From: Candidatus Micrarchaeota archaeon
Lineage (GTDB): Archaea; Micrarchaeota; Micrarchaeia; Anstonellales; Anstonellaceae
Direction: 5' to 3'
DNA length: 64,000 nt
Assembly (NCBI GenBank): GCA_026396415.1
Contig: JAPLWX010000040.1
Coordinates: 25,439 to 89,438, forward strand
The notes under the pieces were generated by a model that was not told where the DNA came from, ran no database searches, and saw only the letters and a list, made by a program, of their open reading frames with translations. The translations under genes were made by a program, and so were the position numbers. Shown in pieces: positions 39,370 through 55,425 of the stretch. Positions within the stretch are counted from its first letter, which is position 1. Every line of letters starts with the position of its first letter.

Positions 39370-39440
39370 GCGCTCACTTCCAGGGGTAATCTGTACATTA
39401 GCTTAAAAAACAGTTCCGTTTTCATATGTGCGGCGAAAAC

Positions 39441-40079
39441 ATGGCAAATGCGAAAAAAGGCGACCTGGTGAAGCTGGAATACACGGGCAGGCTCGCAAAG
39501 ACCGGGCAGGTGTTTGACACCACGGACGAGTCCATTGCGAAAAAAGCCGGCATCTGGGAATCCTCCTCCGCCTACGGGCCCAAGCACGCGCTGTTCGGGA
39601 GCGGCGCCATCATCCCGGGCATGGAGGAGGCCGTCCTGCAGTGCCAACTCGGGAAAACCGAGGACTTTGCCATTGAGCCGAAAAAGGCATTCGGCGAGCG
39701 CGACAACGCGCTCGTGCGCATGATTGCGGAAAAGGAGTTCCGCAAGCAGCAAGTCCAGCCGCAGCCCGGCATGATGGTGACTTTGGACGGTGCCATCGCG
39801 CGCGTGAAATCCGTGACCTCGGGGCGTGTGGTCATCGACTACAACCACCCCCTCGCAGGCGAGCAGGTCGTCTACTCCATAAAAGTCCACGAAATAATCA
39901 CGGACGACAGGAAGAAAATAGAGGCAATACTCTCCTCAAACGCGCTGAGCGGCGACATCTCGCAAGGAGCGGGCGGCAAGCTCATGGTCACATTGAAAGG
40001 CGCGCCCCCTGAAAAGGCCGAAGCCGCGCGCCGCACCATCTCGGCGGTGGTGCCCGGCACCGAAGTGAAATCAGCCTGA
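39441..40079 (+). CDS. FKBP-type peptidyl-prolyl cis-trans isomerase (SlyD-like, with IF insert)
   Basis: KKGDLVKLEYTGRL..GQVFDTT and PGMEEAVL motifs. The ORF is open from 39426. Confidence 0.85.
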   Translation: MANAKKGDLVKLEYTGRLAKTGQVFDTTDESIAKKAGIWESSSAYGPKHALFGSGAIIPGMEEAVLQCQLGKTEDFAIEPKKAFGERDNALVRMIAEKEFRKQQVQPQPGMMVTLDGAIARVKSVTSGRVVIDYNHPLAGEQVVYSIKVHEIITDDRKKIEAILSSNALSGDISQGAGGKLMVTLKGAPPEKAEAARRTISAVVPGTEVKSA

Positions 40080-40156: not shown

Positions 40157-40516
40157 CTACTTCTTCTGCGGCACGGCTTTCTTGGCGCCAAGCTCCTCAT
40201 TTATTGCATCGAGCCTTGCCTGCTCTTTTATTGCCGAGATCTTTGTAGTGGCGCATGCCGCGACGTAGCTCCCGTAGACTTCCTGCAGGTCAATGAGAAT
40301 AGCCGTCCTCTCCCCTCTTTTTGTGGTGTCTGAGAGCTGCGCCTCCAGCTTATGGATGGCTTCCTTCATTTTGCTGCATGCAGGCGCAAGCATGTATTTG
40401 TCATTGGTCTTCCACAGGCTCATCCCCACCATGTACGTGTTGAACCATTCAGTCCTCTCGCCACCCTGCCCAGCTGGCGATGAGGGGTTTTTCTTTTCCT
40501 CGCTCATTGCTTGCAT
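40157..40516 (-). CDS. cluster protein B7, small helical hypothetical protein
   Basis: 119-aa ORF. An internal ATG at 40507 forms an ATGA overlap with the upstream stop. Confidence 0.55.
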   Translation of the reverse strand: MQAMSEEKKNPSSPAGQGGERTEWFNTYMVGMSLWKTNDKYMLAPACSKMKEAIHKLEAQLSDTTKRGERTAILIDLQEVYGSYVAACATTKISAIKEQARLDAINEELGAKKAVPQKK

Positions 40517-41541
40517 TGCATCCCCTCGATTATATCATGCACCCTGTCCTCTTTCCTTGCCTCAAAGAAGGATTTGGCGACCGCGGCCCCTGACTGGAGA
40601 ATTGCGTTCAGTGCAAGCGGAAGCCTGCCACGCGTGGCAAATCCCAGCACAAGCCCTGCAACCATGCCAATAATCGCCCCGTATCCGTGCGGGAGAAAGG
40701 GAACGGCAAAGTAGCCAGCGCCTGCGCACAAGGCTGCCAATTCAACATAGCCCGTCTCAACCTCTGCCCTGTTCTTGGAAGTGCAAAGCTCCGCGGTTCT
40801 TCCCAGCCTCCTTTGCAATTCCTTTCTGAATGCTTCGGCAAAGCCATTGGTTTCCACAAGGCATATCCTGATGGGCGCTGCAACCGAATTCGGCGCAGCC
40901 ATGCTCGTGCACTTGATGTCGCCTCGCCCGCAGTTGATTTGCCAGCTGTAATCCGTCCTGTCCCCGGTGCCCAGCATAGAGTTCTTTATCAACCGGGCAA
41001 CATAGCTTGACAGGGCATTGATATCTTGCCTGTTTTCAGGCATTTTCAGCTCTTTCCTATGGTAAACAAACTGCGCCAGCCCGTTTTCGATTGCTGCCCT
41101 GACCATGAGGGAGGCGATTTTCCTGTCGTACTCAGGCGCAAACAATATGGAATACCTGACTATCATGTCAAGGTCAAACAGGTCATACTTGCTGGAATTT
41201 CTTGCCACTGACCTAAAGAACTTTTTATTGCCCCCGTATCTGAAAGAGTCGAGGATCGTCGCCATTTCATCGTCAGAAATCCGCTCCATCCTCGCATTCT
41301 TGCCCGGCATTTCCTTCATCACCGGCTCGATTGGGCCGGACTGATGGCGCCACTTGGAGACCACAGACGCAGCATTCACTGGGGACTGACTTATGCCGCT
41401 TGCAATGGTTTTCTTTTCCTTCAGCATGTTTCCCAGCCCTTCAATCTTTTTTCGAGGCTTACTCGAACCACTTTCTGAGCCACTGCCACCTGCCTCCTGC
41501 CTTGCCTTCCTTGCCAACGCCTGGCTCAACAGCGACTTCAT
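40504..41541 (-). CDS. cluster protein B6, motif-bearing protein with C-terminal TM hairpin
   Basis: Shared N-terminal motif at residues 61-100 (VSKWRHQSGPIEPVMKEMPGKNARMERISDDEM). Hydrophobic C-terminal segment GYFAVPFLPHGYGAIIGMVAGLVLGF. An alternative start is ATG 41427. Confidence 0.6.
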   Translation of the reverse strand: MKSLLSQALARKARQEAGGSGSESGSSKPRKKIEGLGNMLKEKKTIASGISQSPVNAASVVSKWRHQSGPIEPVMKEMPGKNARMERISDDEMATILDSFRYGGNKKFFRSVARNSSKYDLFDLDMIVRYSILFAPEYDRKIASLMVRAAIENGLAQFVYHRKELKMPENRQDINALSSYVARLIKNSMLGTGDRTDYSWQINCGRGDIKCTSMAAPNSVAAPIRICLVETNGFAEAFRKELQRRLGRTAELCTSKNRAEVETGYVELAALCAGAGYFAVPFLPHGYGAIIGMVAGLVLGFATRGRLPLALNAILQSGAAVAKSFFEARKEDRVHDIIEGMQCKQ

Positions 41542-42823
41542 CAGGATTTATCTCGATATCCAGCGCATCATTTATGGCTGCGGGAGGCGGGATTTTCTCA
41601 TGTTTCACTTCCCACCCTGCCTCTGCTCCGAGTTGTTCCTGTTTTTCAGGGGGGATGAGCTTCAGCGCATCCTTTGCGGATTTCACATCGCGGCTGTTCC
41701 CTGACTTTGCGGCAGATGCGAATTCCACAAGCGCGATTTTCCAAAGCTCCTCCTTCTCCTGGCTTTCAGGCACTGACACGAGCGCGGCTATTGCCTCATC
41801 GATTGGCACTGCTGAAGACTCAAGCGCGGCTTTGGCAAAAGGTGGCATCCTCTCCGGGCGGACAAAAGGCAGCGCCTCCCTAGCCTTGAGAATCATTTTC
41901 TCCTCAGACCGGAGCATTTTGCAGAATGCGGAATGCATCCGGTTCCAAATGAAATTCATGCGGTTGCCGTCCTCCACCTCGCGCATGAGCTCCATCTCTT
42001 CCTTGCTGACCTTTTCCATAGGATTTTCCTTGAGCGCGTTCTGCAGGATGTTCAGCACGCCCTGCACCGTGTCGTTTCCTAACTCATTGGCAGCATGGAT
42101 GCAGGGAATCGCGAACTTCGGGCAGCCGATTTTTGCAATGTGATAAATGATTCCCGCAGGCGCGCCGTTGTTCAGAGAGGCACGCGCCATCTCATCCCAG
42201 CTTTCCTCATGCCTTTTTTTATGGCGGATTTCAAAGTCATTATTCTTTGCACTGGAATCCTTGAGCTTTTTCGAACTCTCGCCTATCCAATATCGAACCC
42301 GCTTCATGTTTTCAAGCAAGGCATCCAGCAATTCAGGCCTTGAAAGCGCATTTGCGCCCGTGAAAATATCTTCCGTATTTGAATAGCTCAGGCACCATCC
42401 TACCTGCAAATCAGCCTCGAGGGACGTTGCCGTACGGCGCGCAACTTCCATTAAGTCGGGGCGGACTGGGAGGTTGGGGGAAAGGACGCCAAGCAGCGTG
42501 CATTTCCACCCTGCGCCTTCAGCATATTTTTTGCTTCCCATGACAGCAACAGCCAGCTCCTCTATGTCCTTTGCGTTGATGTTGCCTCCTTCCCTGATGA
42601 CTTTGATGATGGCTTTCAGCCCGTCATCACTGCCGGCCTGCCTTACCAGCGCGTCAATCTCCCTTCTTGCGAGGCGCACAATCTCGATTTTCTGCACAGG
42701 CTCCTCCTTCTTTATGGGCTCCTGCCCGCCCCTCCGTCTCTTCCATGGGTTCCCGCTTCTTTGAATATCCTGCGGGCTGCCCACTGTGACATTCACAATC
42801 TCTTTCTTTTTTGGCTCAGGCAT
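41459..42823 (-). CDS. cluster protein B5, motif-bearing helical protein
   Basis: 454 aa. Shared motif at residues 24-63 (GNPWKRRRGGQEPIKKEEPVQKIEIVRLARREID). TGATG overlap with the rSAM gene. Confidence 0.6.
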   Translation of the reverse strand: MPEPKKKEIVNVTVGSPQDIQRSGNPWKRRRGGQEPIKKEEPVQKIEIVRLARREIDALVRQAGSDDGLKAIIKVIREGGNINAKDIEELAVAVMGSKKYAEGAGWKCTLLGVLSPNLPVRPDLMEVARRTATSLEADLQVGWCLSYSNTEDIFTGANALSRPELLDALLENMKRVRYWIGESSKKLKDSSAKNNDFEIRHKKRHEESWDEMARASLNNGAPAGIIYHIAKIGCPKFAIPCIHAANELGNDTVQGVLNILQNALKENPMEKVSKEEMELMREVEDGNRMNFIWNRMHSAFCKMLRSEEKMILKAREALPFVRPERMPPFAKAALESSAVPIDEAIAALVSVPESQEKEELWKIALVEFASAAKSGNSRDVKSAKDALKLIPPEKQEQLGAEAGWEVKHEKIPPPAAINDALDIEINPDEVAVEPGVGKEGKAGGRWQWLRKWFE

Positions 42824-43647
42824 CAGTTTCCCCTCATGTACTCGCAGGTGCGCGCATTCCCGCCCGCATCATAATGGATTGACGTGCCGTTCAATCCCGG
42901 GCATCCGCCCTGCTGCAGCGTTATCCCGTAGCTTGCAGAAAGAACCGGGCAGCCGGTGAATTTTCCCTTTGCCCCAAAAAAATCAGCCCCGTACGCGGCC
43001 GCATACACCAAAACCGAATCAATCTTGCCCGGAGCCAGCACAGTTGCATTTCCCCCGCCAACCGGGATATAGGGCGCTATGCCGAGCTTCAGCCCGAGCT
43101 TTTCGGAAAGCTCCACAATTCCCTTCAGCCCGCCCAGATTCTCAGCGCAAATTGTCGTGCGCAGCCAAAGCGATTCCCTGCCCAGCCTCTCCGCAAGGTG
43201 CTGCACATTGGCAAGCACGGCGTCCCATGCGTTGTTGCCTGTGAATTTTTCGTATCCAGCCGCGTCGGCAGATGGGATGTGCACCTGCAGCCTCCATTTC
43301 CCCCCATTCGCTGCAAGCGCCTGCACCACGTCCTCGCGCCACACAGTGGCGCTTGTGGAAATGTCAGCCATGATTCCCCTGGCAAAGCAGAGGTTGATCA
43401 TTTTCACTATATCCGGGTTGCACCAAGGCTCCCCCCCTTCCATTGCCGCGCTTTCAAGACTTGGATGGCTGCGAATTATCTTCTCGAATGCCGGAAAGCC
43501 AAGCATCCTCATGAGCGGCTTGGCATCGGTCCTCGAGCAGATGATGCACCTGTTGGGGCAAAAGTCGGTTATGTCCACTGTCGCCCTCCTGGCTTTGGAT
43601 GCGCCCGCTTCCGCAGCAGGAAAAGTGCACGCGCTTGTGCTGCCCAT
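42823..43647 (-). CDS. cluster protein B4, radical SAM enzyme (small, with C-terminal Cys triad)
   Basis: CX3CX2C motif in DFCPNRCIICS (43537-43560). GGEP SAM-binding motif. C-terminal GCPV..GGCPG..RTCEY. ATG 43647 overlaps the upstream stop (TGATG), and a GTG lies at 43650. Confidence 0.8.
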   Translation of the reverse strand: MGSTSACTFPAAEAGASKARRATVDITDFCPNRCIICSRTDAKPLMRMLGFPAFEKIIRSHPSLESAAMEGGEPWCNPDIVKMINLCFARGIMADISTSATVWREDVVQALAANGGKWRLQVHIPSADAAGYEKFTGNNAWDAVLANVQHLAERLGRESLWLRTTICAENLGGLKGIVELSEKLGLKLGIAPYIPVGGGNATVLAPGKIDSVLVYAAAYGADFFGAKGKFTGCPVLSASYGITLQQGGCPGLNGTSIHYDAGGNARTCEYMRGN

Positions 43648-45227
43648 CACTTTCCACCCCAGTCAGGCTCGCTCTCGTTCGCGCAGAAAACAGTCTCCCC
43701 TTGTTCCACCGTGGTGGTTGCGAAGTGCACGTAGTGCGCCTTCTTCTCCTCAGCCACCTTCATGCCGAATTCCATGGTCCTGTCCTTGTCCCCGTGGAGC
43801 TCGGCAATCCCCTTGGCAATCTCGACTATATCGCGCTCGCTTGTCTGGCTCTTGCCCATCTCAGCGCTTGTGGGAAGGAAAAGCCCGAATGTCACGGCAT
43901 AGCTTCCGTCCTTGCCCTCTATCACCACGTTTATGCGCTCTGTGAAGCCAAGCGACACGCAGTCGAACCTGCAGTAAGCCCCGTCCACGCCTGTCAGGCT
44001 GCCAGCCTCCTCGAGGTTCCTCTGCCTGAAGGCAAACTGGTCAAGCGCGCTTGGGAAAACAAGCTCGTGCCTGTTGCCGGTGGGCATGCGCACCGCCATG
44101 TTCTCATACAGGGGTATGCTCTCTCTCACAACTGTTGGATCTCCACGTAGAAAATGCCCTGGATTTAGCGCGTCGGGCATAGCGGGCTTCTCCGGCCCTA
44201 GGCGTATAATTTCACCCGCCGTCCCGATTACCTTTCTGCTCTCAACTCCCCCCAGCCTTGCGCCGAATTCCTTTGCAAGCTTGGTGTAATCGCACACTCC
44301 TGGCAGCTCGAACTCCACGAAGAAATAGCCGAGCTTGGCTGCCGCTGCAAGAAGGCTTTTCACCTCCCTGATGCCCTTGGCCGGTCCCCCTTCTTCGTCA
44401 GCCCTGGCGGGTTCCCTGTCGTCGTCAGGGTACCACCACTCGGAGTCTACCTTGAGCGTAATCCTGTCCGTGCTTGGCACAATCACGAGGTTGGCGTTTC
44501 CGGTTTCCCCGCGCAGCAGGTCGCCGGTTACTTCCTCATACCTTGCTTCATAGCCGTTCTCCCATTTGCTCACGCAGCAAGCGGACCATTCCCCTCCATC
44601 CTTTGCTATGTGCAGGGTGATGGTTTCCCCCGCAGCCATCTTTTTCACCCTTTCAACAGCAGCCTTGTCCAATTTTGGCTCGAATTCCTTCAGCTTCCTG
44701 ATGAACCCGTCAGCGCCCGCCTCGGGCGGAAACAGCGTCGGCTCAGGCAGGTAAAGCCCGCCATAGGCAGGCTGCAGGAAGGAGTCGTTCATCCTCTCCT
44801 GCTGCTCTGTCTCGAACCTGACTTTTAGTCCCTGGAAAATATGGAAAACGTCCTGCTGCCCTGAAAAGCCGCCGTGCAGCTGGTGCATGGCAATGAGGCG
44901 CAGCACAGTGAGCAGCTCCTTGCCGTCGTCCCTCCCTAGCCACATGTCGGTCTGAGATGTATCAAATCCCCGAAGCGCAGGCTCGTCCACAAGCGGGCCT
45001 GAAAGCGCTTTTCCCAGCCTTTCAATGAGCGGGCGCGAGACCGCGGGCATTTCCACAGCCTCGCCAAGCGAGGCGGTCTCGGCTGCAAACAGCCTGTACC
45101 TTTTCGACTCGCCGTTACCTATCCTGCAATCGGAAAGGCTCTGCTTGCGGACGCCGCGCATGCGCCCCACCACGCCGGCAAGCTCGCCCCTCAGCTGGTT
45201 CGTGGTCCAAGTGGATGAATATGCCAT
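43647..45227 (-). CDS. cluster protein B3, 526-aa ORFan
   Basis: Long ORF, 1 nt after the upstream stop. Mixed alpha/beta composition. No motif recognised. Confidence 0.6.
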   Translation of the reverse strand: MAYSSTWTTNQLRGELAGVVGRMRGVRKQSLSDCRIGNGESKRYRLFAAETASLGEAVEMPAVSRPLIERLGKALSGPLVDEPALRGFDTSQTDMWLGRDDGKELLTVLRLIAMHQLHGGFSGQQDVFHIFQGLKVRFETEQQERMNDSFLQPAYGGLYLPEPTLFPPEAGADGFIRKLKEFEPKLDKAAVERVKKMAAGETITLHIAKDGGEWSACCVSKWENGYEARYEEVTGDLLRGETGNANLVIVPSTDRITLKVDSEWWYPDDDREPARADEEGGPAKGIREVKSLLAAAAKLGYFFVEFELPGVCDYTKLAKEFGARLGGVESRKVIGTAGEIIRLGPEKPAMPDALNPGHFLRGDPTVVRESIPLYENMAVRMPTGNRHELVFPSALDQFAFRQRNLEEAGSLTGVDGAYCRFDCVSLGFTERINVVIEGKDGSYAVTFGLFLPTSAEMGKSQTSERDIVEIAKGIAELHGDKDRTMEFGMKVAEEKKAHYVHFATTTVEQGETVFCANESEPDWGGK

Positions 45228-45228
45228 T

Positions 45229-46290
45229 TCACCAACCTGCCTTCGAATCCGGGTTCAGCTTGGGTATCACGGGCAGCCTGTCCAGCGGGTTCTCCACGTA
45301 GCTGAGATTGATGCGCTGCACCACCGCGTTCCTCTCGTCAAGGTCAAGCGGGCCCTTCCTCTTCTTCTCTATCTCGCCAAACACGTTGTCAAGCGACTTT
45401 TCCACGTCAGGCATGCGCCTTAGCCTCTCCTCGCGAATCTCCTGCGAGGTATCCACGCTCGTTCCCATAGGCACCGAAACATCCTTCGGCTCCTTGTGGC
45501 TTCCCATATCGCACATCATACTTTTCGTCTCCAGCCTCACAGTGGGCTTGAGTATGGTCTTGGTCACATTGCGGTTCATGAAGTCTTCGCCCTCGTCAGG
45601 TTTCTCCTTCCCAAGTTCTTTCTGCACAATCTCGCTGGCTTGCCTGAAGGCATCAGCAGTGTCTTTGTTTGCTAAAAGCACCCGCCCACCACCAATGTCA
45701 TGCATAAGCATGTCATCTGGCAAACCAGAGTCGCCCTCCTCGGCTATAATGCTGTTCGTTGTCTCATTCACCGTGATGGTCGTGTCGTCGAGGTTCAGCT
45801 CCACTATCTCGCAAAGCTGCTTGCCCGTCATTTTCGATGCCGTTATCCTCATCAGCCTCCTGACCTCAGGGTCGTCGAGGAAAAGATCCTTGGAATGCCC
45901 TTTGTCCGTGGCTACTATGCAGGCATGCACCTCGTACGAGCGGTGGATGAGCGCGGAAAGTATGCTGGCAGGCACGTCCAGCCCCTCCCCGAGGTTCACG
46001 GTCTCAAGCCCTGTCGCAATCTCCTTGTTGAAGAATTCTGTGAGCGCCTTCATCACCTGCAGCGCGTCCATTCCCTGCTCTCCCGGGTTGTGGATTGCGG
46101 CAACGAGGAATTTCGGCACCAGGAGGGTTTTTGTCTCAAGGGTGCCGTCGCCCCTCCTGTAGGTGCACGTCCACTCCCTCATGTTCGGGTCAAGCAGCCT
46201 CTCCTGCAGGGCAGGCATTTGCCTCTGCGCCACCTGCGGGACTTTTTGGTTGCCCAACGCGTTTGCCTGGTTGAATGCCATCAAATCCAC
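45229..46290 (-). CDS. cluster protein B2, 353-aa ORFan
   Basis: Starts at GTG 46290 or at ATG 46281 (preceded by GGTGGA), 4-13 nt after the ATPase stop. No motif recognised. Confidence 0.6.
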   Translation of the reverse strand: MDLMAFNQANALGNQKVPQVAQRQMPALQERLLDPNMREWTCTYRRGDGTLETKTLLVPKFLVAAIHNPGEQGMDALQVMKALTEFFNKEIATGLETVNLGEGLDVPASILSALIHRSYEVHACIVATDKGHSKDLFLDDPEVRRLMRITASKMTGKQLCEIVELNLDDTTITVNETTNSIIAEEGDSGLPDDMLMHDIGGGRVLLANKDTADAFRQASEIVQKELGKEKPDEGEDFMNRNVTKTILKPTVRLETKSMMCDMGSHKEPKDVSVPMGTSVDTSQEIREERLRRMPDVEKSLDNVFGEIEKKRKGPLDLDERNAVVQRINLSYVENPLDRLPVIPKLNPDSKAGW

Positions 46291-46294
46291 CGTT

Positions 46295-47857
46295 CTATCC
46301 TTTTTTCTTGTATTCCCGAATCACTTTGTACGATTCAAGGTCGTCGCCGACGCGATTTCTGATGTCGTCCCATGCGTAAGTGTCTGCCGGAGGCTTCTTT
46401 TTCATGAGCGTGTCCTTGAGCAATTCGGTCGTGACGGGCATCCCTTCATCCACAATGTCCCTAATTGCATCCTCTATCATGCGGGGGTTCACGCTCTTCT
46501 CATTCACGTACTTCATCAGCTCACTCAGGTCGACCTCGTGCCCCTTGGGCAGCTTGCTTGCGATTATGAGCTTCATGTCCTCCGGGCCGGCTTTCCCTAT
46601 GAACGCCTTCTTGAACCGGTTCAGGATTGCAGGGTCCCATCTCGATGGGTCGTTTGCGCACAATACGAACATCACGCCCGGGATCCTCTCCGAAGTCTCG
46701 GCCTTGAGCACTGACAGCCACTCGCTGCTGTACGGGCTGTCGGGGTTCAGCACACCATCCGCTTCGTCAAGTGAGAGGATGCACTTTGCCGCGTTCCTCG
46801 CGCTCTGGATGACGTTCCGCACCGCCTTTCCAGATTCGCCCTGCCACATGCTTATCAGGTGCGATGTGTTGACATTGATCAGGTTGAAGCCGAACTCGTG
46901 CGCCACTGCCTCCAGAAGCTTGCTCTTGCCATAGCTTGACGGGCCGTAAAGCACCAGCAGCGATCCTGCGTCAATCCTTGCAGCACGCCCGCAGAGCAGT
47001 TCCTTTGCAGGCTGGATGTATTCGCCCACCAAGGACTCAAGCTCGGTCCTCGGCTCTATGAAAGGCATGTCGCGGATTGCGGATGCGCGCAGCCACGACT
47101 TTGCCCTGTCAACATCGACTTTCTCCACTTTCGAAGATTTCCGCATGTCTGCCATGAAGGTGGCGGTCTGGATTATGCCGAACAGGTCGCCCGGCACATA
47201 GCCGTATGTTATTTCGGCTGCATACTTGCGCGTGTTCTCGTTCCATTCGAATTTCTTTATTTCCGCGCCCTCCACTATGGCGTTTATCATCTCGTACCTT
47301 TCAGCCTTTGTGGGCGGGATGAATTCGATGTTTATCGTGATTCTTGGCGGGCTGTTCAGCGCCTCGTCAAGCATGCCTTCCTCGTTTGTCGTGAAACAGG
47401 GGAAAAGCCCAAGGTTTTCCTTGCTCTGCGTTTGCCCGAGCAGCGATGCCAGAATTGCCCGGTTGGACTGGTTGACAGAGCCCTCGCTTCTCTTGCCCAG
47501 GTATTCTATGTCGTCAAAAAAAGGCATTGCAGTCGTGCCGCCATGTTCCTTCACATACTTGCGGGCGTCGGTCATCACCTGGACAATTGCCTCTGGGGAC
47601 TCCAGCACAGGCATTTCCCACAAAAGCGAGCCTGTTTCCTGCGCAATATACCTTACGAATTCAGTCTTGCCTGTCCTGGGCAGGCCCTTGCATAGCGTGC
47701 CGAATGTGCCGAGCTTGCCGTAGTTGCCATAATGGGTTATGGCGCTTTTTAGAAAATCAGCCTTCTCCTGAAGCCTCGGAGGGAGGAATATCCTGACTCC
47801 GGATATTTTTTTCGGCTCGATTTTGACGCTTCCGGAGCTCATGCCCGTATTCAACAT
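46295..47857 (-). CDS. cluster protein B1, double-domain classical AAA+ ATPase (Cdc48-like, no N-domain)
   Basis: D1 has GLPRTGKT and FFDDIE. D2 has GPSSYGKS, ILSLDEAD and the SRH-like NDPSRWDPAILNRF. GGGGGA Shine-Dalgarno-like (SD-like) element 5 nt upstream of ATG 47857. Confidence 0.85.
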   Translation of the reverse strand: MLNTGMSSGSVKIEPKKISGVRIFLPPRLQEKADFLKSAITHYGNYGKLGTFGTLCKGLPRTGKTEFVRYIAQETGSLLWEMPVLESPEAIVQVMTDARKYVKEHGGTTAMPFFDDIEYLGKRSEGSVNQSNRAILASLLGQTQSKENLGLFPCFTTNEEGMLDEALNSPPRITINIEFIPPTKAERYEMINAIVEGAEIKKFEWNENTRKYAAEITYGYVPGDLFGIIQTATFMADMRKSSKVEKVDVDRAKSWLRASAIRDMPFIEPRTELESLVGEYIQPAKELLCGRAARIDAGSLLVLYGPSSYGKSKLLEAVAHEFGFNLINVNTSHLISMWQGESGKAVRNVIQSARNAAKCILSLDEADGVLNPDSPYSSEWLSVLKAETSERIPGVMFVLCANDPSRWDPAILNRFKKAFIGKAGPEDMKLIIASKLPKGHEVDLSELMKYVNEKSVNPRMIEDAIRDIVDEGMPVTTELLKDTLMKKKPPADTYAWDDIRNRVGDDLESYKVIREYKKKG

Positions 47858-47907
47858 AATATCCCCCTATAGTGTCATTTCTAATAACATCCATTGCCCT
47901 CTTTTTA

Positions 47908-47961
47908 TGTGTGTCGAAAGATATATAAATAGATATCCAATTTTATACTCTTAAACACACA
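47908..47961 (-). promoter_or_regulatory. promoter P-B: TGTGTGT-N40-ACACACA inverted repeat centred on the TATA box
   Basis: tgtgtgtcgaaagatatataaatagatat... is 27/29 identical to 53222-53250. TATA box at about 47921-47930. Confidence 0.6.
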
Positions 47962-47999
47962 TTAAAACAAGCCCAATCCGCACTTTGCGCAATTGCATT

Positions 48000-49340
48000 T
48001 CAATCATGGAATACGTCTAAGCCGATGGGCACAAGAAGATGGAAGCCGGCCTTCCGCCTCACATGCTTGAACCCGCTGTTTTGCCTTGCATATCTCAGGC
48101 ATTCTTCCCGCATGCCTTTCGGAAGCCCCTTGGAAAGCCAAAGCGCTTTTTGCTGTATGCTCTCGAATTCGCTCTTCAGCGCAACAAGCGCAATCTCCGC
48201 CTTCATGCAGTCAGGCAATTTCTCCGCGTACTCAACCGCATATCTCTGCATGTATTCAATCGGGCTTGCTGCAGCTGCCTTGAGGCATTCCTTCTTCATT
48301 TCATCAGGCATCGCATTTGCAAGCTTGAAAACATCGAACTGGCTCTTCTCTTTTTCTCCCCCCAGGACGGAAATCGCCTTTTCATAGGCAGACTGCAGGA
48401 ATTCCGCATCAAGCGGGCTTGGGAAATTTTTCGAGTATTCCAGCCATTCCGGCGAATGCTGGTTTTCCAGCCACTTGATTGCAACCGGATAAGCTCTTTT
48501 CCTGAATTCATCGCGCATGGCTGCGGGTAGCGCCTCGCCGAATTTCGTGGAGCCTATGGAGTGCCAGTCCTTGTCACCTTCAAGCCTCTCGATGGCAATC
48601 GCAAACGCCCTTTTCCCGCACTCCTCCCTCATTTTTTCAGGAAGGCTTTCTGAAAGCTTGAGCGCGGCAATTTGCACTGTCTCAAACACGCTTTCCATTC
48701 CCTTGAGAGCCACTGTTTTTTTCATCTCATCAGGAAGGGATGCCGCTGCCTCTAAAGCAGGGCGCTGCACATACTCCTCCTGCCGAAGTTCGCCGTCTTC
48801 ATACGACCATGCCAGCCCCTTGAGGCAGCATTCCAGCCTCATCTCGTTCGGCAGCCCCTTGGAAAGCTCAAGCGCCTTAAGCTTCGCCTCATAATGTACA
48901 TTTTCCATTCCCCTGAGGTAGCATTCCTTTTTCATTTCGTCAGGCAGCAGCCTCGCCGCTGCATCAAGCGCCCCGCTCCACACAATCTGTTCGAATGATG
49001 CCGCTGCAAAACGCAGGATGCAAAGCATATCATCCTCATGGAGCGAACCCAAAAATCCGCTTATTCTATGCCATGACGCCCGGACCAATGTCCATTCCTC
49101 CAACGTGTTGCATTGCCTTCCCGAAGGGTCCAGCGACCAGATTAACCAATCCATTTCTTTTTTGGACAATCTCTGTTTTTCGACAATTGGCTGCGGAAAC
49201 GCTTTCATTACTGGCGCCGTGCGCACCTTGAACCGCAGCCAGCGGGAGTATAGCTTCACTGCAAGCGAGTCTGGATTATGCTCTTTTTTGATTTCAAGAG
49301 CCAACTCGAATTTATTCAGTTTCCTCATTTCCGGACACAT
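48000..49340 (-). CDS. cluster protein A3, motif-bearing repeat protein (nine LPxEM[KR]xEC-type repeats)
   Basis: Shared motif at residues 31-70. About 9 helical repeats with variable spacing (roughly 30-55 aa): LPDEMKKEC, LPNEMRLEC, LPDEMKKTV, LPEKMREEC, LPAAMRDEF, FPSPLDAEF, MPDEMKKEC, LPDCMKAEI, LPKGMREEC. Confidence 0.65.
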   Translation of the reverse strand: MCPEMRKLNKFELALEIKKEHNPDSLAVKLYSRWLRFKVRTAPVMKAFPQPIVEKQRLSKKEMDWLIWSLDPSGRQCNTLEEWTLVRASWHRISGFLGSLHEDDMLCILRFAAASFEQIVWSGALDAAARLLPDEMKKECYLRGMENVHYEAKLKALELSKGLPNEMRLECCLKGLAWSYEDGELRQEEYVQRPALEAAASLPDEMKKTVALKGMESVFETVQIAALKLSESLPEKMREECGKRAFAIAIERLEGDKDWHSIGSTKFGEALPAAMRDEFRKRAYPVAIKWLENQHSPEWLEYSKNFPSPLDAEFLQSAYEKAISVLGGEKEKSQFDVFKLANAMPDEMKKECLKAAAASPIEYMQRYAVEYAEKLPDCMKAEIALVALKSEFESIQQKALWLSKGLPKGMREECLRYARQNSGFKHVRRKAGFHLLVPIGLDVFHD

Positions 49341-49344
49341 TTCC

Positions 49345-51633
49345 TCAATCCACCCTGTTCCTTATCCTGCCGTAAAATCCGACATCGGACAGGCTCTTTT
49401 CAAGCACGCCCGGCATGAGATCGTCCATGAGCTTTTTCATTGATTCGTGGTCCCTGCCTTGCGAGTACACGTAGCCTGAGAACTCAATCTGCGTTTTGCG
49501 CGGCAGGAATGAAAGCGCCCTTGCAACCCTTTCACCCTTGAACCACATGCCTTCCCTGACCTGTTCCCAGAGTATTTCCTCTGCTTTTTCATAAAGCGGC
49601 GGCCGGTATTCCTCAGGCAAGGCAGGTATTGCCCCGAACAGGTTCATCTCAAGCGTGCGGGTTATTGTCTTTCCCTCAGGCGTCTTTTGCGGTTCAAACT
49701 TCCTGGCTATTCTCGCTGCAGCAAGCCCGTACAGCCCTGCCTGCCTCTTAGGAGGCTGGAATGCGATGAGCCTCACGAAAATCTCGCCAAGGCTGGTGAA
49801 ATCAAAATCGGGTTGCCTGATGAACTCCTCAAGCGCATCGCACGCAGGCGCCCCCAGCCTCTTCCTTTCCTTTTCCTTCAGGTAAGGGGCAAGAAGCACT
49901 GCTTTCTGCCTGTCAACAGTGGTATGTATTGCCTTCTGGATTTCCCTATCCTCATCGTTCAGCTCCTTTTTCACATCAAGAAGGCTTTGCCACAGCCACG
50001 GCGCGTCGCACCAGTCTCCTTCAAATGACGGCAGCAGCTCGTCGGCAGTGTAATCGCAAAGCTCGCCATTTCTCCCTTTTTCGCAGGCAGCCATTGCGTC
50101 ATAGGCGTGCCTGAACACAAACCCGTGCTTGCTCCTCAGTGCAACTGGCACCACGCGCTTGAGCCCTTCAAAATCAAGCTCCTTCACAAGCGGGGCGAAA
50201 GCCCTGAGCCGTTTATCGCTTGCCTTTGCCTTTTCTTCATCATCAGGCCCTGCAAATTCGTCAAGCAGCACCCTTGATTGCTGCTTTGGCGTGAGGGTGA
50301 GGAAGGCTGCTTCAAGGTCGATTTCATCCAGCTTCAGGCATTCCATTCCCTTGTTCCAAAGCCTGAACCTCAGCTTCGGCTCCACAAGCGCAAGCTGCGA
50401 GAACGCGGCTTTCCCGGCAGCGCCTCCCTTTTCCAGCCCAAGCGTTATCGCCCACCATCTTTTCTTCTCCTCGTCAACATTGTCCAGAAGCTCTAAAACA
50501 GCTGCCATTGCCTTTTCGCCCAGTACCTTGCTTTGGAGCAGCTCCTCCACAGCCTTGCCTATTTCTTCCTTTGATTCAAGGCGCAGCAGCCGCACTCCTT
50601 CAAGCGCTGTCACTTCCCACCTGTTCATGATGGATTTCTTTATCAGCTCCATCTTCGTTTTCTTCGTGAAATCCGGCAAAAGCCCCAGCACCTCAACAGC
50701 TGCGGCAGGCTTGCCTCCGGTCTCCAGCACATGCTCCACAGCCTTGCGCATCAGGCGCTTTGATTTCGCCTTCAGGCTCATTCCTTCCATTCCCTTTACG
50801 CCCTTTGTTTCGCCTGTCAGTATCGCCAGGCCTATTTTCGTCACTTCCATCTCGCCATTCCTTATTGCCTCGATCATGGGCGCATTCCGGAGCCTGGGCG
50901 GAAGCTTCACAATGCGCTTTGCAAGCCTCACTCCGGAAACCAACACGAATCCGTCTTTCAGGACGTACCTAATTATGTCTGAGATGGACTTGTCCGACTG
51001 GTGCTCCAGCAGCCCGATGCCAATCGAGGCGACCTGCTCGTTTCCGCTTGCAAGCGCTTTCTTTATGGGCCTTTCCTGCTGCTTGACTGGAAGGGAGGAT
51101 ATCAGATAAGCGACGCGCAGCTCTATTCCTGAATTGGAAAGCCCTGCTTCGACCGCGATTGCAGCAGACTCCGGCTCGTACTTGTGGATGTCCCGCTCAA
51201 GCACGCTGCATGCATCAATTGAAAAGACAGGCATTTTCAAAAGCTTTGTGACCATTGCGCAGGATTCCCTGGGGTCTTCCACCTGTTTCAGCCATTTTAT
51301 TATGTATCCGTTGAGTTCCTCCTGTCCTGCATTTCGCCTTGAAAGGAGCGCGGTTGCTATCCTGGCAGCATCATGAGGGTGAAGCATGTGGAGGTTCTCC
51401 GCCCACCAGTCAACTTTGATGCCCTCTGCATCGGCAATCTTTTCAATCGCGGTGCAAACATTTTGCAAATCCTTTTCAGGCATCCGCTCAGGGCGGATCT
51501 CGTCCCCCGGCAGCTTTTTCACTATGGGCGCGGTGCGGACAATCATTTTCTGCCAGTAGGTGATGGGCCTGCCGTGCTGCCTGTTTGCTGGCAAGTCCGC
51601 GCTTTTTTTCTCCCCTCTCTCCTTTTGTATCAA
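49345..51633 (-). CDS. cluster protein A2, motif-bearing 762-aa helical-repeat protein
   Basis: Shared motif at residues 24-63 (ITYWQKMIVRTAPIVKKLPGDEIRPERMPEKDL). TTG start overlaps the upstream stop (TTGA). Many LPxx[LY]R-type helices. Confidence 0.6.
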   Translation of the reverse strand: MIQKERGEKKSADLPANRQHGRPITYWQKMIVRTAPIVKKLPGDEIRPERMPEKDLQNVCTAIEKIADAEGIKVDWWAENLHMLHPHDAARIATALLSRRNAGQEELNGYIIKWLKQVEDPRESCAMVTKLLKMPVFSIDACSVLERDIHKYEPESAAIAVEAGLSNSGIELRVAYLISSLPVKQQERPIKKALASGNEQVASIGIGLLEHQSDKSISDIIRYVLKDGFVLVSGVRLAKRIVKLPPRLRNAPMIEAIRNGEMEVTKIGLAILTGETKGVKGMEGMSLKAKSKRLMRKAVEHVLETGGKPAAAVEVLGLLPDFTKKTKMELIKKSIMNRWEVTALEGVRLLRLESKEEIGKAVEELLQSKVLGEKAMAAVLELLDNVDEEKKRWWAITLGLEKGGAAGKAAFSQLALVEPKLRFRLWNKGMECLKLDEIDLEAAFLTLTPKQQSRVLLDEFAGPDDEEKAKASDKRLRAFAPLVKELDFEGLKRVVPVALRSKHGFVFRHAYDAMAACEKGRNGELCDYTADELLPSFEGDWCDAPWLWQSLLDVKKELNDEDREIQKAIHTTVDRQKAVLLAPYLKEKERKRLGAPACDALEEFIRQPDFDFTSLGEIFVRLIAFQPPKRQAGLYGLAAARIARKFEPQKTPEGKTITRTLEMNLFGAIPALPEEYRPPLYEKAEEILWEQVREGMWFKGERVARALSFLPRKTQIEFSGYVYSQGRDHESMKKLMDDLMPGVLEKSLSDVGFYGRIRNRVD

Positions 51634-51860
51634 AAATCACACCTTGGGTCAGGCGGCTTGCCGTCGAAAATACCCGGCAGCCATTTTTCAATCCCGGCTT
51701 TCATATGCCCCTTCTTGTCCTTTATTTCGGTTACTGCGAGCGAGGCGAGAGGGTGGCGGTACTTGATTGGCAGCGCAGCTATCATGCGCGCTATTGCCTC
51801 AGCCGGGCTTTTTGGAGGCTTCAGATTCTTCAGCCAGCCCTGGCGCAATGACGTCCTCAA
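51630..51860 (-). CDS. possible small protein (76 aa) coupled to A2
   Basis: ORF whose TGA overlaps the only available start (TTG 51633) of the 762-aa gene. Its own start is uncertain (TTG 51860 or ATG 51785). Confidence 0.3.
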   Translation of the reverse strand: MRTSLRQGWLKNLKPPKSPAEAIARMIAALPIKYRHPLASLAVTEIKDKKGHMKAGIEKWLPGIFDGKPPDPRCDF

Positions 51861-51928
51861 TGCCCCAAATCCCTCTTATTGCCAGGCAATTGCGCACTTT
51901 TCATCCGCATTCCTCCTATGGTGCTCTC

Positions 51929-53188
51929 TTACTCTTCAGCTGGGCTAAGCTCCTCAGTCATCTGCTTGGCAAAATGCCGTGTATCGTGGTACAACGTGTC
52001 CTTCTCCACCTCAATGTAAAGCTCCAGCCTCAAATCTTTCGGCAGCATGCCTGCCGTTTTCTGCGCGGATTCGCGGATTTGCTGGTCTTCATAGTTATTC
52101 AAGATGCTGGCAATCTGCGCCTTGGCTATCCTGCAAATGATTCCAATTTCGTGCGAGTCGCCCCCAAATGCCTGCTCAAGACGGGTCAGCATTACACTGA
52201 GTGCTGTCCCATCATTTTTGTCAATGATCCTGTGGTAAATATCCGGGCGGTTCTTGCTTGGGAGCCTTCCAAGGATTTCAATGGTTTTTGCAAGGCAGCC
52301 CAAGTCTATTCCAATATGCTGCTTGATGCGCAGTGTGGCTTCGCGGTAGACAGTGTCGCGGAATTTTTCAGGAATCTTCTCAACCATGTCAATGCATGCC
52401 ATAATGGAATCTACGTTATACGCTTCACGGATGAAGTTCACAATCCTGTTCGCAACGGCTTCATAAACAGCATCCTTGCTTGCTTCGCCAAGCTTCCAAA
52501 CCGGTGTCAGGATGGCTTCCAATTCAGGCATATTGCAGGATTTAGCCTCTTTTCCAAGCAGGCTCGCCAGCCTGCCATCAAGTTCTGTGCTTGCGCCGTC
52601 CAGTGCAAGATCTATCAATGCCCCTGCCAGCTGGTTTTTCTCATCGTCGGTCTGGGCGTTTTTCAGCACCTCGCTCCGCGTTGCCCCGCCAACATTGATC
52701 TTCAGAATCCGGAGGGCATGCATGCAGAGGTCAGCCCTTTCTCCCTCATTTTTACGCTCAAATGAGGCTGCCAGCGCCAATATGTTCCATTTCATATGGA
52801 TATTTCCAAACTCCAATGGCGCAAGCTCATCCGCATCCTCGAAGCACAGCTGGTTGATTGTTTTCATGGTGTTGATGAACAAAAGCGAGGTCTTTTCATC
52901 AGTTCCACTGCCGCGGTTGTTTTCCAATATTTTTTTCAGGGCGTCCATTCCTTCCTTGCCAAGCCTTTTCACTTCAACGCGTTCAACAGGCAAGTCTTTC
53001 ATGATGGGCGTGATTGCCGGGTTTTTGCTTTGCCAGCCCGGCGGTATTATTTCTTCCTGAGGCTGCCCGCCTTTTCCTGTCGCGTCTCCCTCCCCTTTCT
53101 TCTTCCGTCCGAGCAACCTCATCAAACCACCATGATGCATCTGAGTAGGTTCGCACCTGCGCCAGCAGGCGCTGGTGCTACGTGTCAT
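51929..53188 (-). CDS. cluster protein A1, motif-bearing helical-repeat protein
   Basis: 419 aa. Shared motif at residues 49-88 (PPGWQSKNPAITPIMKDLPVERVEVKRLGKEGMD). ATG 53188 is about 20 nt downstream of the predicted TSS of P-A. Alternative ATGs at 53140 and 53122. Confidence 0.6.
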   Translation of the reverse strand: MTRSTSACWRRCEPTQMHHGGLMRLLGRKKKGEGDATGKGGQPQEEIIPPGWQSKNPAITPIMKDLPVERVEVKRLGKEGMDALKKILENNRGSGTDEKTSLLFINTMKTINQLCFEDADELAPLEFGNIHMKWNILALAASFERKNEGERADLCMHALRILKINVGGATRSEVLKNAQTDDEKNQLAGALIDLALDGASTELDGRLASLLGKEAKSCNMPELEAILTPVWKLGEASKDAVYEAVANRIVNFIREAYNVDSIMACIDMVEKIPEKFRDTVYREATLRIKQHIGIDLGCLAKTIEILGRLPSKNRPDIYHRIIDKNDGTALSVMLTRLEQAFGGDSHEIGIICRIAKAQIASILNNYEDQQIRESAQKTAGMLPKDLRLELYIEVEKDTLYHDTRHFAKQMTEELSPAEE

Positions 53189-53221: not shown

Positions 53222-53275
53222 TGTGTGTCGAAAGGTATATAAAGAGATATTTATTTTGACACTTTAATACACACA
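53222..53275 (-). promoter_or_regulatory. promoter P-A: TGTGTGT-N40-ACACACA inverted repeat centred on the TATA box
   Basis: tgtgtgtcgaaaggtatataaagagatat... is a paralogue of 47908-47961, with identical 40-nt spacing between the half-sites. Confidence 0.6.
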
Positions 53276-53286
53276 GAAAAAAGCAG

Positions 53287-53850
53287 CTAAAGCCTTCCCG
53301 CCATTTCTTCCGCCCGCATTTTCGCCAGCGATTTTGCCACTGACTCCGGAACCCTTGACTTCCATTCCTTCCCCTTTCGCATCCTTTCGCGCACCGTTGC
53401 GCCCCTGTACTTCCTGCGCGCAAGAAGCGGCACGCGCATCACTTTTTTCCCAGAGCGCCTCATGAGCCTCAGGACAAGCGCATTGTTTGAAAAGCAGACA
53501 TCGTAGCTCGGCACGTGCGCATCAAGGTACGACACCCACTCGTAGTCGTTCGGGATATCCTGCAGAAGGAACACCCTGCACCTGTCTGACAGCTTTTCCT
53601 TCACAAGCATTGCGCGCATCATCCTTTTCCTCTCCTGCGCGGAAAAGGGGTTCTTCTCCGTCCTTTTTTCCTGCGCGCTCCCAATCACAACAATCACGCG
53701 CGAAAAGCGCGCGGCAATGTATTTAAGCGCGAACAAATGCCCCTTGTGCAAAGGCTGGAACCTGCCGATGAACAGCGCAGTTTGCTTTTGGCGCGCACTG
53801 CCCGCGGGCTTGCGCCTGCCGATGAACAATGCAGCCTTCCCCTCAGCCAT
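53287..53850 (-). CDS. nicotinamide-nucleotide adenylyltransferase (archaeal type)
   Basis: ALFIGRFQPLHKGH (HxGH) motif with the size and layout of archaeal NMNAT. The N-terminal 18 aa contains a duplicated ALFIGR segment. Confidence 0.85.
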   Translation of the reverse strand: MAEGKAALFIGRRKPAGSARQKQTALFIGRFQPLHKGHLFALKYIAARFSRVIVVIGSAQEKRTEKNPFSAQERKRMMRAMLVKEKLSDRCRVFLLQDIPNDYEWVSYLDAHVPSYDVCFSNNALVLRLMRRSGKKVMRVPLLARRKYRGATVRERMRKGKEWKSRVPESVAKSLAKMRAEEMAGRL

Positions 53851-53865
53851 AAAAACACCTAAGAA

Positions 53866-55425
53866 TCAGTGCTTGAAGTGCCTTCTTCCTGTGAACACCA
53901 TGGCTATCCCGCGCTCGTCCGCGGCGGCAATCACCTCTGCATCCTTCACAGAGCCGCCCGGCTGCACCACGCAGCCTATGCCGCCGTCCGCAAGCGCGTC
54001 CAGCCCGTCGCGGAACGGGAAGAAGGCATCCGATGCCGCAACAGTGCCCTTGAGGTCAAAGCCATGCCTGCGCGCCTTCTGTATGGCGATGTTGCACGAG
54101 TCCACGCGGCTCATCTGCCCCGCCCCCACGCCCACAAGCTGCCTGCCATTCGCAATCGCAATCGCATTGGACTTTATGTGCTTGGCAAACTTCGTGGCAA
54201 AGTAGCAGTCCTCGAGCTGCTCTGCTGTCGGCTGCTTCCTGGTGACTACTTTCAGCGCGTTTTTGTCATAAATGCCCGGGTCCCTTCCCTGGAAGAGCAT
54301 GCCGCCCACGATGTAGCGGAACTCGACAGCGCGCTCCTGGCTCTGGTCCCACAGGTTGGACACGTCAAGTATCCTCCTGCTTTCCCTCTGCTTCAAAATC
54401 TCAAGCGCCTCGGGCTCAAATCCCGGCGCGAGGATTACCTCAAGGTACTTTGTGCCAATCGCCTTTGCAGTTGCCGCATCCACCTTGCGTGAAAATGCCA
54501 CAATGCCGCCGAACGAGGACTCGGGGTCTGAAGCATGCGCGCGCAAATAGCTCTCCTCGAGCGTCTTCCCTTCCGCGCCCCCGCACGGGTTGTTGTGCTT
54601 GAGTATGACTGTCGCCACCCCGTCCTTGAACTCGCGGATGAGCGAGAATGCGGACGATGCGTCCAGGAAGTTGTTGTAGGACATCAGCTTGCTTCCGGCA
54701 TATATGACGGAGTCGAAAATGCTCGTCCTCCCAAGTATCCTGTACGCAGCCGCCTGCTGGCTGGGATTTTCGCCGTACCTCAGGCCGTATGCCCTCTCGA
54801 ACTTCATCTCCAGGAAATCGGGGAACAAGTCATCCTTCAGCGCGCCCGACAGGTACCTGCAGATTGCGGCATCATAGGAACTCGTGCGCGCAAACGCCTT
54901 GAGCGCCAGCTCGCGCCTCATCTTCCCGGGCATTTCCCCCTTTTCCAGCGCATCCGCGACCGCATCATAGTCCTTCGGGTCCACCACAACGACGACATGC
55001 TCGTGGTTCTTCGCTGCCGCGCGCACCATTGCAGGCCCGCCCACGTCGATATTCTCAATCGCCTCTTCGAACTTCACCCCTTCCCTTCCTGCCACCTGCT
55101 CGAAAGGGTAGAGGTTGGCTACCACCATGTCAATGGGCTGAATGTTGTTCTTTTCCGCCTGGGCTTCGTGTTCCTTGTTGCCCCTCCTGTAAAGTATGCC
55201 GCCGTGTATTTTCGGGTGCAGCGTCTTCACCCTTCCCTCGAAAAGCTCGGGAAAGCCTGTGACATCCGACACCTCGCGCACCGAAATGCCCTTCTCCCTA
55301 AGGTGCCTTGCAGTGCCTCCGGTGGATATGATTTCCACTCCGCACGCACGAAGCCTCGCAACAAAGGCAGCCAGATTCCTCTTGTCCCAGACGCTCACTA
55401 GCGCGCGAGTAACCCTAAACGTCAC
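53866..55425 (-). CDS. purH: bifunctional AICAR transformylase / IMP cyclohydrolase
   Basis: N-terminal ALVSVWDKRNL..STGGTARHL..GFPELFEGRVKTLHPKIHGGIL. 519 aa. Confidence 0.92.
   Translation of the reverse strand: MTFRVTRALVSVWDKRNLAAFVARLRACGVEIISTGGTARHLREKGISVREVSDVTGFPELFEGRVKTLHPKIHGGILYRRGNKEHEAQAEKNNIQPIDMVVANLYPFEQVAGREGVKFEEAIENIDVGGPAMVRAAAKNHEHVVVVVDPKDYDAVADALEKGEMPGKMRRELALKAFARTSSYDAAICRYLSGALKDDLFPDFLEMKFERAYGLRYGENPSQQAAAYRILGRTSIFDSVIYAGSKLMSYNNFLDASSAFSLIREFKDGVATVILKHNNPCGGAEGKTLEESYLRAHASDPESSFGGIVAFSRKVDAATAKAIGTKYLEVILAPGFEPEALEILKQRESRRILDVSNLWDQSQERAVEFRYIVGGMLFQGRDPGIYDKNALKVVTRKQPTAEQLEDCYFATKFAKHIKSNAIAIANGRQLVGVGAGQMSRVDSCNIAIQKARRHGFDLKGTVAASDAFFPFRDGLDALADGGIGCVVQPGGSVKDAEVIAAADERGIAMVFTGRRHFKH

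Follow-up and report, generated by a model that had tools for sequence, protein, structure and literature searches.

Gene content of the cluster

The DNA analysed here (the window) is a 64,000-nucleotide (64-kb) stretch of the genome of a Candidatus Micrarchaeota archaeon (GenBank assembly GCA_026396415.1, contig JAPLWX010000040.1, positions 25,439 to 89,438 of the forward strand). It contains a minus-strand gene cluster (in the order A1, A2, A3, B1, B2, B3, B4, B5, B6, B7) flanked by purH/NMNAT (53287-55425) and an FKBP gene (39426-40079, plus strand). Five of its proteins (A1, A2, A3, B5 and B6) begin with the same N-terminal module, referred to below as the tag, and are encoded beside a core consisting of an AAA+ ATPase (B1), two orphan proteins (B2 and B3) and a radical S-adenosylmethionine (SAM) enzyme (B4). 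Micrarchaeota are ultra-small, host-dependent archaea with reduced genomes; to our knowledge, almost nothing is known of their interaction or conflict machinery, and no description of this cluster was found in the Micrarchaeota literature. The genes, with product lengths in amino acids (aa), are:

51929-53122, minus strand: A1, 397 aa from M23 (longest open reading frame (ORF) start, 53188); module at 52811-53122, helical body
49345-51633, minus strand: A2, 762 aa; module at 51346-51633, predicted HEAT-like alpha-solenoid body
48000-49340, minus strand: A3, 446 aa; module at 49005-49340
46295-47857, minus strand: B1, type II classical AAA+ ATPase (D1 and D2 domains; two Pfam AAA matches, PF00004)
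45229-46290, minus strand: B2, orphan core protein, 353 aa; orthologues in all four genomes discussed below
43647-45227, minus strand: B3, orphan core protein, 526 aa; no family match
42823-43650, minus strand: B4, small radical SAM enzyme, 275 residues (PF04055; cluster motif CPNRCIIC)
41459-42823, minus strand: B5, 454 aa; module at 42542-42823, start overlapping the stop of B4
40504-41427, minus strand: B6, 307 aa from M39 (longest ORF start, 41541); module at 41146-41427
40157-40516, minus strand: B7, 119 aa, last gene of the operon (from the gene caller)

Significance of the shared N-terminal motif

The original prediction, made from the letters of the window, was that five proteins share a 40-residue motif, W-x8-P-[IV]-x-K-x2-P-x7-R-[LMI]-x4-[MLI]-x2-[LVI]. 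All five segments have the coordinates and letters first given for them, on the minus strand, and this expression matches exactly five times in the six-frame translation of the window; a looser pattern, W-x7-9-P-[IVLM]-x-K-x2-P, again matches just the five motif proteins. Leave-one-out profiles of the 40-mers, run against the 693 ORFs of 50 aa or more in the window, recovered four of the segments with low E values, but B5, although the best match outside the training set, reached an E value of only 0.55.

52925-53044, minus strand: A1 motif, PPGWQSKNPAITPIMKDLPVERVEVKRLGKEGMDALKKIL; matches the expression, leave-one-out E 7e-7
51445-51564, minus strand: A2 motif, ITYWQKMIVRTAPIVKKLPGDEIRPERMPEKDLQNVCTAI; matches the expression, leave-one-out E 5e-4
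49131-49250, minus strand: A3 motif; matches the expression, leave-one-out E 3e-7
42635-42754, minus strand: B5 motif; matches the expression, E 3e-12 with the profile from non-window members
41242-41361, minus strand: B6 motif; matches the expression, leave-one-out E 1e-6

The decisive test of significance is a profile trained on 24 members of the family in other genomes, without any window sequence, which detected A2 (E 4e-19), B5 (3e-12), A3 (4e-9), A1 (2e-7) and B6 (4.5e-7) among the window ORFs, the best ORF after these five having an E value of 2.5. The motif is genuine and cannot plausibly be due to chance. Its claimed enrichment also withstood a full HMMER search of 1.84 billion representative proteins with a profile of the five window N-termini: ten matches at E<=1e-3 comprised the five window proteins themselves, four new motif-bearing proteins and one spurious repeat protein, that is, nine true matches. 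Because this search gave only the family and a single spurious match, comparable frequency in unrelated proteins is ruled out.

Other details required adjustment. The shared region is not confined to the 40 residues, which are present but form the core of a module of about 95 residues that reaches a near-invariant Asp. The alignment is gap-free, as stated, in the window genome because the W-x8-P spacing is uniform there, but elsewhere 5-9 residues separate the Trp from the first Pro. The residue numbers given for A1 (49-88) and B6 (61-100) are tied to the longest ORFs, whereas the gene caller starts these proteins at M23 and M39. The later ATG codons (53122 instead of 53188 for A1, 41427 instead of 41541 for B6) put the Trp at residue 30 of A1 and residue 26 of B6, within the family range of 20-34, and that of B6 also does away with an 83-nt overlap between B6 and B5; the longest-ORF starts of both genes are probably wrong. 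Counted from the gene-caller starts, the five window proteins all have the Trp between residues 26 and 34.

Distribution in related genomes

The new profile matches lead to a small set of syntenic loci. The word-indexed search with a 16-sequence N-terminal alignment returned one protein, and the same type of search found a single homologue of B3 in 5.8 billion proteins, in L003, the syntenic locus of a Candidatus Micrarchaeota archaeon metagenome-assembled genome; genome and metagenome scans with B2 found the organism of L003 only. The profile matches add L011 and L014 (both from one JGI sample) and L013 (a 93-kb ENA contig), and a further match, L012, lies on a 1.2-kb orphan contig. The module is thus known only from this cluster, in about four closely related Candidatus Micrarchaeota genomes.

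All complete loci share one layout, lie between purH/NMNAT and FKBP, and encode orthologues of B1 (34-72% identical to the window protein), B2 (33-61%), B3 (24-62%), B4 (36-54%) and A2 (34-37%). The number of tagged genes differs: five in the window, 11 in L003, seven in L011 and L014 together and at least six in L013, and nearly all non-core genes of the cluster carry the module. It had been proposed to check whether the module always adjoins the ATPase/radical SAM core; it does so in every genome that has the module, and none was found elsewhere in the 1.84 billion representative proteins.

Architecture and conservation of the module

The aligned N-termini of the window proteins and their relatives show a constant order: a basic leader, the stretch W-x5-9-P-x2-K-x2-P-x7-R-[LM]-x3-[ED]-[LM], and then two or three helices with conserved Asn and Leu, ending in the near-invariant Asp. 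An A-G-x-P-x-S element directly precedes the Trp in most genomes. Over 29 family members, the anchors are the Lys (29/29), the Trp and the first Pro (28/29 each), the second Pro (26/29), the Arg (23/29, with Lys in three others) and the terminal Asp (28/29), and, counting from the called start, the Trp falls at residues 20-34 in all 29. Orthologues are 24-39% identical over the motif stretch and 35-48% over the body, so that the motif is no better conserved overall; the residues between the anchors are free to vary and the anchors alone are fixed. Since the anchors are fixed while the rest of the stretch is no better kept than the body, the pattern of conservation is that of a short linear motif and not of a folded domain, as judged from the alignment.

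An AlphaFold2 (AF2) model of A2, computed from a 10-sequence alignment, is all-helical with a mean predicted local distance difference test (pLDDT) score of 81.8. Scores fall below 50 in the leader (residues 1-23) and in the P-I-V-K-K-L-P core (32-44), despite alignment depth being greatest there; the Trp lies in a short helix of low confidence, and the first confident helix (53-65) comes directly after R50-M51. The anchors are thus in a stretch predicted to be unstructured, which fits a peptide used for docking, recognition or modification.

The bodies that follow are, as originally described, dissimilar: hhalign probabilities between orthologue groups are all <13%. Tagged proteins range from 211 to 762 aa. 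A2 has a TTG start and orthologues in all four genomes (34-37% identity); the body of A3, which has an orthologue in L013 (40% identity), consists of about nine LP-x-E-M-[KR]-x-E-C helical repeats, as read from its sequence. A Foldseek search with the model of A2 matched SF3B1, CAND1, karyopherins and PR65 with probability of about 1.0 but a TM-score of only about 0.25, and in this model the A2 body is a generic HEAT-like alpha-solenoid of stacked antiparallel helix pairs (A2 being the only protein checked against this criterion); the threshold of Pfam HEAT was not reached. Five relatives, the L003 proteins of 280, 313, 260 and 259 aa and a 586-aa protein of L011, end in two or three C-terminal transmembrane helices, and B6 has a Gly-rich hydrophobic C-terminal tail that is weaker than these. 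Because several family members end in this way, at least part of the assembly would be membrane-associated.

The core proteins

B1 has the tandem D1 and D2 domains of a type II AAA+ ATPase, and its closest solved structures are VAT, Afg2, Rix7 and p97. Read from the sequence, D1 has a degenerate Walker B motif (DD), and D2 has an intact Walker A motif (GPSSYGKS), a DE Walker B motif and an M-W-Q-G-E-S pore loop. The sequence before D1 is only about 45 residues long, and the adaptor-binding N domain (double-psi barrel) of Cdc48/VAT is missing; B1 scores 87 bits against the CDC48 family TIGR01243 (cut-off 803 bits) and 55.6 bits against CdvC (cut-off 650 bits), with matches only to AAA and lid domains. 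With D2 intact and the N domain absent, B1 looks like an active threading motor that lacks an adaptor-binding domain of its own.

Such a motor could use the tag as a degron or engagement signal and nothing else, B1 reading the leader and motif and then unfolding or extracting the protein, with B2, B3 and B4 in unrelated roles. The apparently active D2 pore, the missing N domain and the disordered basic tail of about 20 residues at the start of every tag speak for this. It is improbable nevertheless, given that making five to 11 large scaffolds just to degrade them would be uneconomical in a reduced genome and that no protease partner is encoded in the operon (PrsW is outside both the operon and the variable region).

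The best NCBIfam matches of B4 are MftC, W (tungsten)-cofactor maturase, MoaA, PqqE and ScmE/F, at 27-40 bits against family cut-offs of 265-500 bits; PqqE is the only solved-structure match (1.9e-6). It has three C-terminal Cys residues and no SPASM match in Pfam. These affinities raise the main rival to a docking function, that the motif is a substrate site of B4: the exposed P-x2-K-x2-P would be recognized, and the invariant Lys or the Trp modified, on every paralogue, a protein-level maturation whose logic, by analogy, would resemble that of the anaerobic sulfatase-maturating enzyme (anSME) acting on sulfatases, or of the maturases of ribosomally synthesized and post-translationally modified peptides (RiPPs). 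B4 is present in every cluster, its gene often overlapping a tagged gene; its nearest relatives are SPASM/twitch enzymes that modify peptides or proteins (MftC, PqqE and sactipeptide maturases); the Lys is found in 29 of 29 members within a proline-flanked stretch predicted to be unstructured; and paralogues with a conserved N-terminus and a variable remainder resemble a RiPP leader/core layout. On the other hand, Pfam detects no RiPP recognition element (RRE)/PqqD domain in B4 or its neighbours, no protease or exporter is encoded in the cluster, and B4 falls far under every family cut-off, with MoaA and cofactor maturases scoring alike, so that a small-molecule or cofactor role is equally open. 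The spacing from Trp to Lys varies, which argues against a fixed Lys-Trp cross-link, and one of fixed ring size was rejected for this reason. We regard modification by B4 as possible but doubtful; it would be compatible with docking, because the modification could gate assembly.

B2 and B3 have nothing recognizable in Pfam, NCBIfam, PADLOC, PHROGs or the sequences of the PDB, including searches with 4-sequence profiles, and Pfam scans of their orthologues member by member gave nothing. AF2 modelled a B3 orthologue from a 2-sequence alignment with a pLDDT of 47. The window proteins contain lineage-specific insertions (about residues 162-230 and 330-375 of B3, and 183-228 of B2) that are missing from all three orthologues. 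A ubiquitin-like GG C-terminus considered for B3 was dropped, being absent in L011 and L013. Across all cluster proteins, Pfam, NCBIfam, PADLOC and PHROGs gave generic AAA and radical SAM matches only; those of PADLOC, which covers known anti-phage defence systems, were generic AAA (IetA and others) on B1 and a 13-bit pVip on B4, with nothing on the other eight proteins.

A shared promoter element

The A and B genes are apparently transcribed from two promoters of the same type, since A1 and B1 are each preceded by a TATA + CTTTCGACACA promoter:

53222-53243, minus strand: TATA box and CTTTCGACACACA element upstream of A1
47908-47929, minus strand: the same TATA and CTTTCGACACACA element upstream of B1

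The full element, TTTATATA[C/T]CTTTCGACACACA, occurs at just these two sites in the window, where zero would be expected at random, and relaxing the pattern adds no further site. With so few sites in the 64-kb window, it was rejected as the generic promoter of the genome. In the other genomes, cluster genes are preceded by related elements (TATA + YTTTCGMCACA):

L003, about 3322-3345, 5152-5175 and 7425-7450
L013, about 2988-3010 and 6565-6590
L011, about 335-360
L014, about 9350-9372

The element is thus kept across relatives although the coding sequences are hypervariable. It suggests that the A and B operons are two transcription units regulated together through an element of their own close to the promoter. 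Over the A genes, GC content is a little reduced (0.52-0.54 versus 0.56-0.58).

Hypervariability and origin

Comparison of window positions 34853-60958 with L003, L011, L013 and L014 shows flanking proteins 66-94% identical between genomes (carB, 94%; a TPR-AAA protein, 93%; purH, 83-90%; FKBP, 76%; NMNAT, 66-75%; a 391-aa membrane protein, 67%), versus 24-72% for cluster proteins, even the AAA+ ATPase, a kind of protein that normally changes little. The span of 12-18 kb is kept at the one locus, diverging far faster than its neighbours. The locus is an island that keeps its position but evolves fast, and such behaviour is usually associated with functions in conflict or at interfaces. Scans of viral contigs with B2 and B3 found no relatives, and a viral or proviral origin is therefore unsupported.

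The number of tagged paralogues differs among the four related genomes, and the paralogues are clearly products of local duplication. In L003, a HEAT-like unit of 93 nt (31 aa), repeated in tandem 5.6 times, makes up the body of a 291-aa tagged paralogue (12149-12667); the copies are about 74% identical, which indicates recent repeat amplification of that solenoid body, and solenoid bodies in this family appear to grow in this way. The shared N-terminus might be unlinked to the core, either serving an autonomous function (with a membrane, nucleic acid or housekeeping partner) or persisting as the slowest-evolving remnant of tandem duplicates, as local duplication and the recent amplification of a 31-aa repeat in one body would allow. 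Invariant residues in a stretch predicted to be disordered need a specific partner, however, and the family was never found apart from the core; this explanation is quite improbable.

Hypervariability also brings to mind an export or translocation signal of a new secretion route, by which solenoid effectors would reach the cell surface or the host archaeon. DPANN archaea depend on contact with a host, and a conserved N-terminus on polymorphic, fast-evolving proteins beside an ATPase resembles the effector families of specialized secretion systems. We consider this very improbable: the cluster encodes no candidate for a channel or membrane pore, the tag is not hydrophobic, and the C-terminal transmembrane hairpins of several tagged proteins better fit a complex on the cytoplasmic face.

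Some genomes have tagless small or membrane proteins in the cluster or at its edge, none of which is kept in all genomes:

L003 3352-3864 and L014 9373-9894: tagless transmembrane proteins after NMNAT, 170 aa and 173 aa
L003 17348-18424: tagless N-terminally anchored protein, 358 aa

In the window, B7 has no module, and no homologue of it was found. The 295-nt spacer between A1 and A2 holds a 51-aa ORF from the gene caller (51630-51785, minus strand), its stop overlapping the TTG codon with which A2 begins; as neither a homologue nor any feature was found for this ORF, it may not be a gene. Just beyond the cluster lies the gene of the TPR-AAA protein (552 aa, 36356-38014, minus strand), the AAA domain of which is the nearest paralogue of B1 D2 in the window (about 30% identity). 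Being 93% identical to its L011 counterpart, it is housekeeping-like and outside the variable module.

A proposed recruitment tag for interchangeable subunits

The reading that we favour, tentatively and at somewhat under an even chance, is that the module is a recruitment tag that docks variable subunits onto the co-encoded core. The tag would begin with a flexible, basic leader some 20 residues long, continue as an unstructured linear motif bearing the fixed anchors W ... P-x2-K-x2-P ... R-[LM], and finish as a short helical cap running into the body. Fused to otherwise unrelated bodies (putative HEAT-like alpha-solenoids, some with C-terminal transmembrane hairpins), it would dock interchangeable subunits onto the N-domain-less Cdc48/VAT-like unfoldase B1 and the orphans B2 and B3, with the radical SAM enzyme B4 working in the same complex. 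The exposed leader would offer the AAA+ pore a free end, by means of which the ATPase could load, remodel or remove subunits. In its evolution and expansion, the module as a whole resembles a conflict or host-interface system.

What the data show directly are the motif and its family, their confinement to loci with the core, a predicted lack of order around the anchors, and hypervariability. Docking as the function, with the ATPase, B2 or B3, or the radical SAM enzyme as candidate readers of the tag, we infer from several features taken together: the module occurs only in this cluster and on nearly every non-core gene; the position of the Trp is constant, the anchors are fixed and the anchor stretch is predicted to be disordered; the bodies show no detectable homology; B1 lacks an N domain but has an intact D2; and the A and B operons share a promoter element. 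The original suggestion that a common module marks partners or clients of the ATPase/radical SAM core holds, given the exclusive co-occurrence of the two, and each of the three roles offered with it (a docking or targeting peptide, a tag recognized by the AAA+ ATPase, a modification site of the radical SAM enzyme) is a candidate. Its analogy with cargo loading finds no support, as no shell protein was detected and the tagged proteins are apparently HEAT-like scaffolds or membrane-anchored proteins and not enzymes.

Several considerations weigh against recruitment. B2 and B3 are without a recognizable fold. An invariant Lys between prolines would suit the target site of an enzyme equally well. 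The low pLDDT of the anchor stretch depends on a 10-sequence alignment, and the co-occurrence of tag and core has little phylogenetic depth because only about four genomes are known.

A more far-reaching interpretation, unlikely to be right, is that the locus is a hypervariable, modular conflict or host-interface system of DPANN archaea (Micrarchaeota), in which solenoid and membrane-anchored specificity subunits plug via a disordered N-terminal peptide into an AAA+ unfoldase/radical SAM effector core, and are reshaped, in number and sequence, among close relatives by duplication and repeat amplification. A tag that plugs in interchangeable subunits would represent a new architecture for variable complexes in archaea, and one that is a radical SAM target would represent a protein-level modification of a new kind, its consensus site being defined. 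The reach of either may be narrow, the family being known from only about four metagenomic genomes. On both readings, the motif offers a precise experimental handle through mutation of its W, K and P anchors.

Comparison with known systems

No curated library contains the tagged family, B2 or B3, and the system therefore appears to lie outside the known kinds, with a very narrow known distribution. The loading peptides of encapsulins and bacterial microcompartments (BMCs) are similar in being short terminal peptides on unrelated proteins encoded beside the receiving machine. Unlike those systems, the cluster has no detected gene for an HK97-fold or BMC shell (Pfam and NCBIfam, cluster proteins), although a cryptic shell protein is conceivable in B2 or B3, which have no recognized fold. 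Encapsulin cargo consists of enzymes or ferritin-like proteins with Gly/Ser/Leu-rich loading peptides, whereas the tagged proteins are putative solenoids or membrane-anchored proteins bearing W..P-x2-K-x2-P..R-[LM], a motif unrelated in sequence to known loading peptides.

RiPP leaders with SPASM/twitch maturases (PqqA/PqqE/PqqD, MftA/B/C, NHLP/Nif11) offer co-clustered paralogues that have a conserved N-terminus and a variable remainder, and an adjacent radical SAM enzyme, B4 being nearest to PqqE and MftC. The substrates here, in contrast, would be folded proteins of 211-762 aa and not short precursors. Even at E<=1, Pfam gave no PqqD-like RRE on B2, B3, B4 or any orthologue of theirs, and the operons contain no peptidase or transporter gene that might serve as leader protease or exporter. 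anSME is likewise a radical SAM enzyme of the broad group that acts on a short proline-containing motif near the N-terminus of large proteins, but its C/S-x-P/A-x-R target has no counterpart here: the alignment has no fixed Cys or Ser, there is no sulfatase match in Pfam, and any modification is putative.

Recruitment to Vps4/CdvC (MIT-MIM) and to the N domain of Cdc48/p97 (SHP, VIM and VBM) also joins short motifs, partly proline-rich or helical, of many different clients or adaptors to one classical AAA+ ATPase. B1, unlike these, has neither an MIT nor a Cdc48 N domain, and the consensus differs. The clients of MIT-MIM are Snf7-fold ESCRT-III proteins, whereas the tagged proteins are not ESCRT-III, and the one client modelled, A2, is a predicted HEAT solenoid. 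With the Cdc48/VAT/p97 family, B1 shares tandem D1 and D2 domains but not the N domain or a full-length family score.

The VARTIG hypervariable module of Thermococcales, for which a role in conflict or recognition has been proposed, contains immunoglobulin (Ig) domains and is of unknown function (Makarova et al. 2021, PMC8416519). In place of Ig domains, the Micrarchaeota cluster has an AAA+ ATPase, a radical SAM enzyme and tagged putative solenoids, and no toxin or immunity domains were found in it. What it shares with VARTIG, and with polymorphic toxin-like systems, is the form of a module restricted to one archaeal lineage and tied to a fixed locus, extremely variable between close relatives and followed by changing sets of paralogues.

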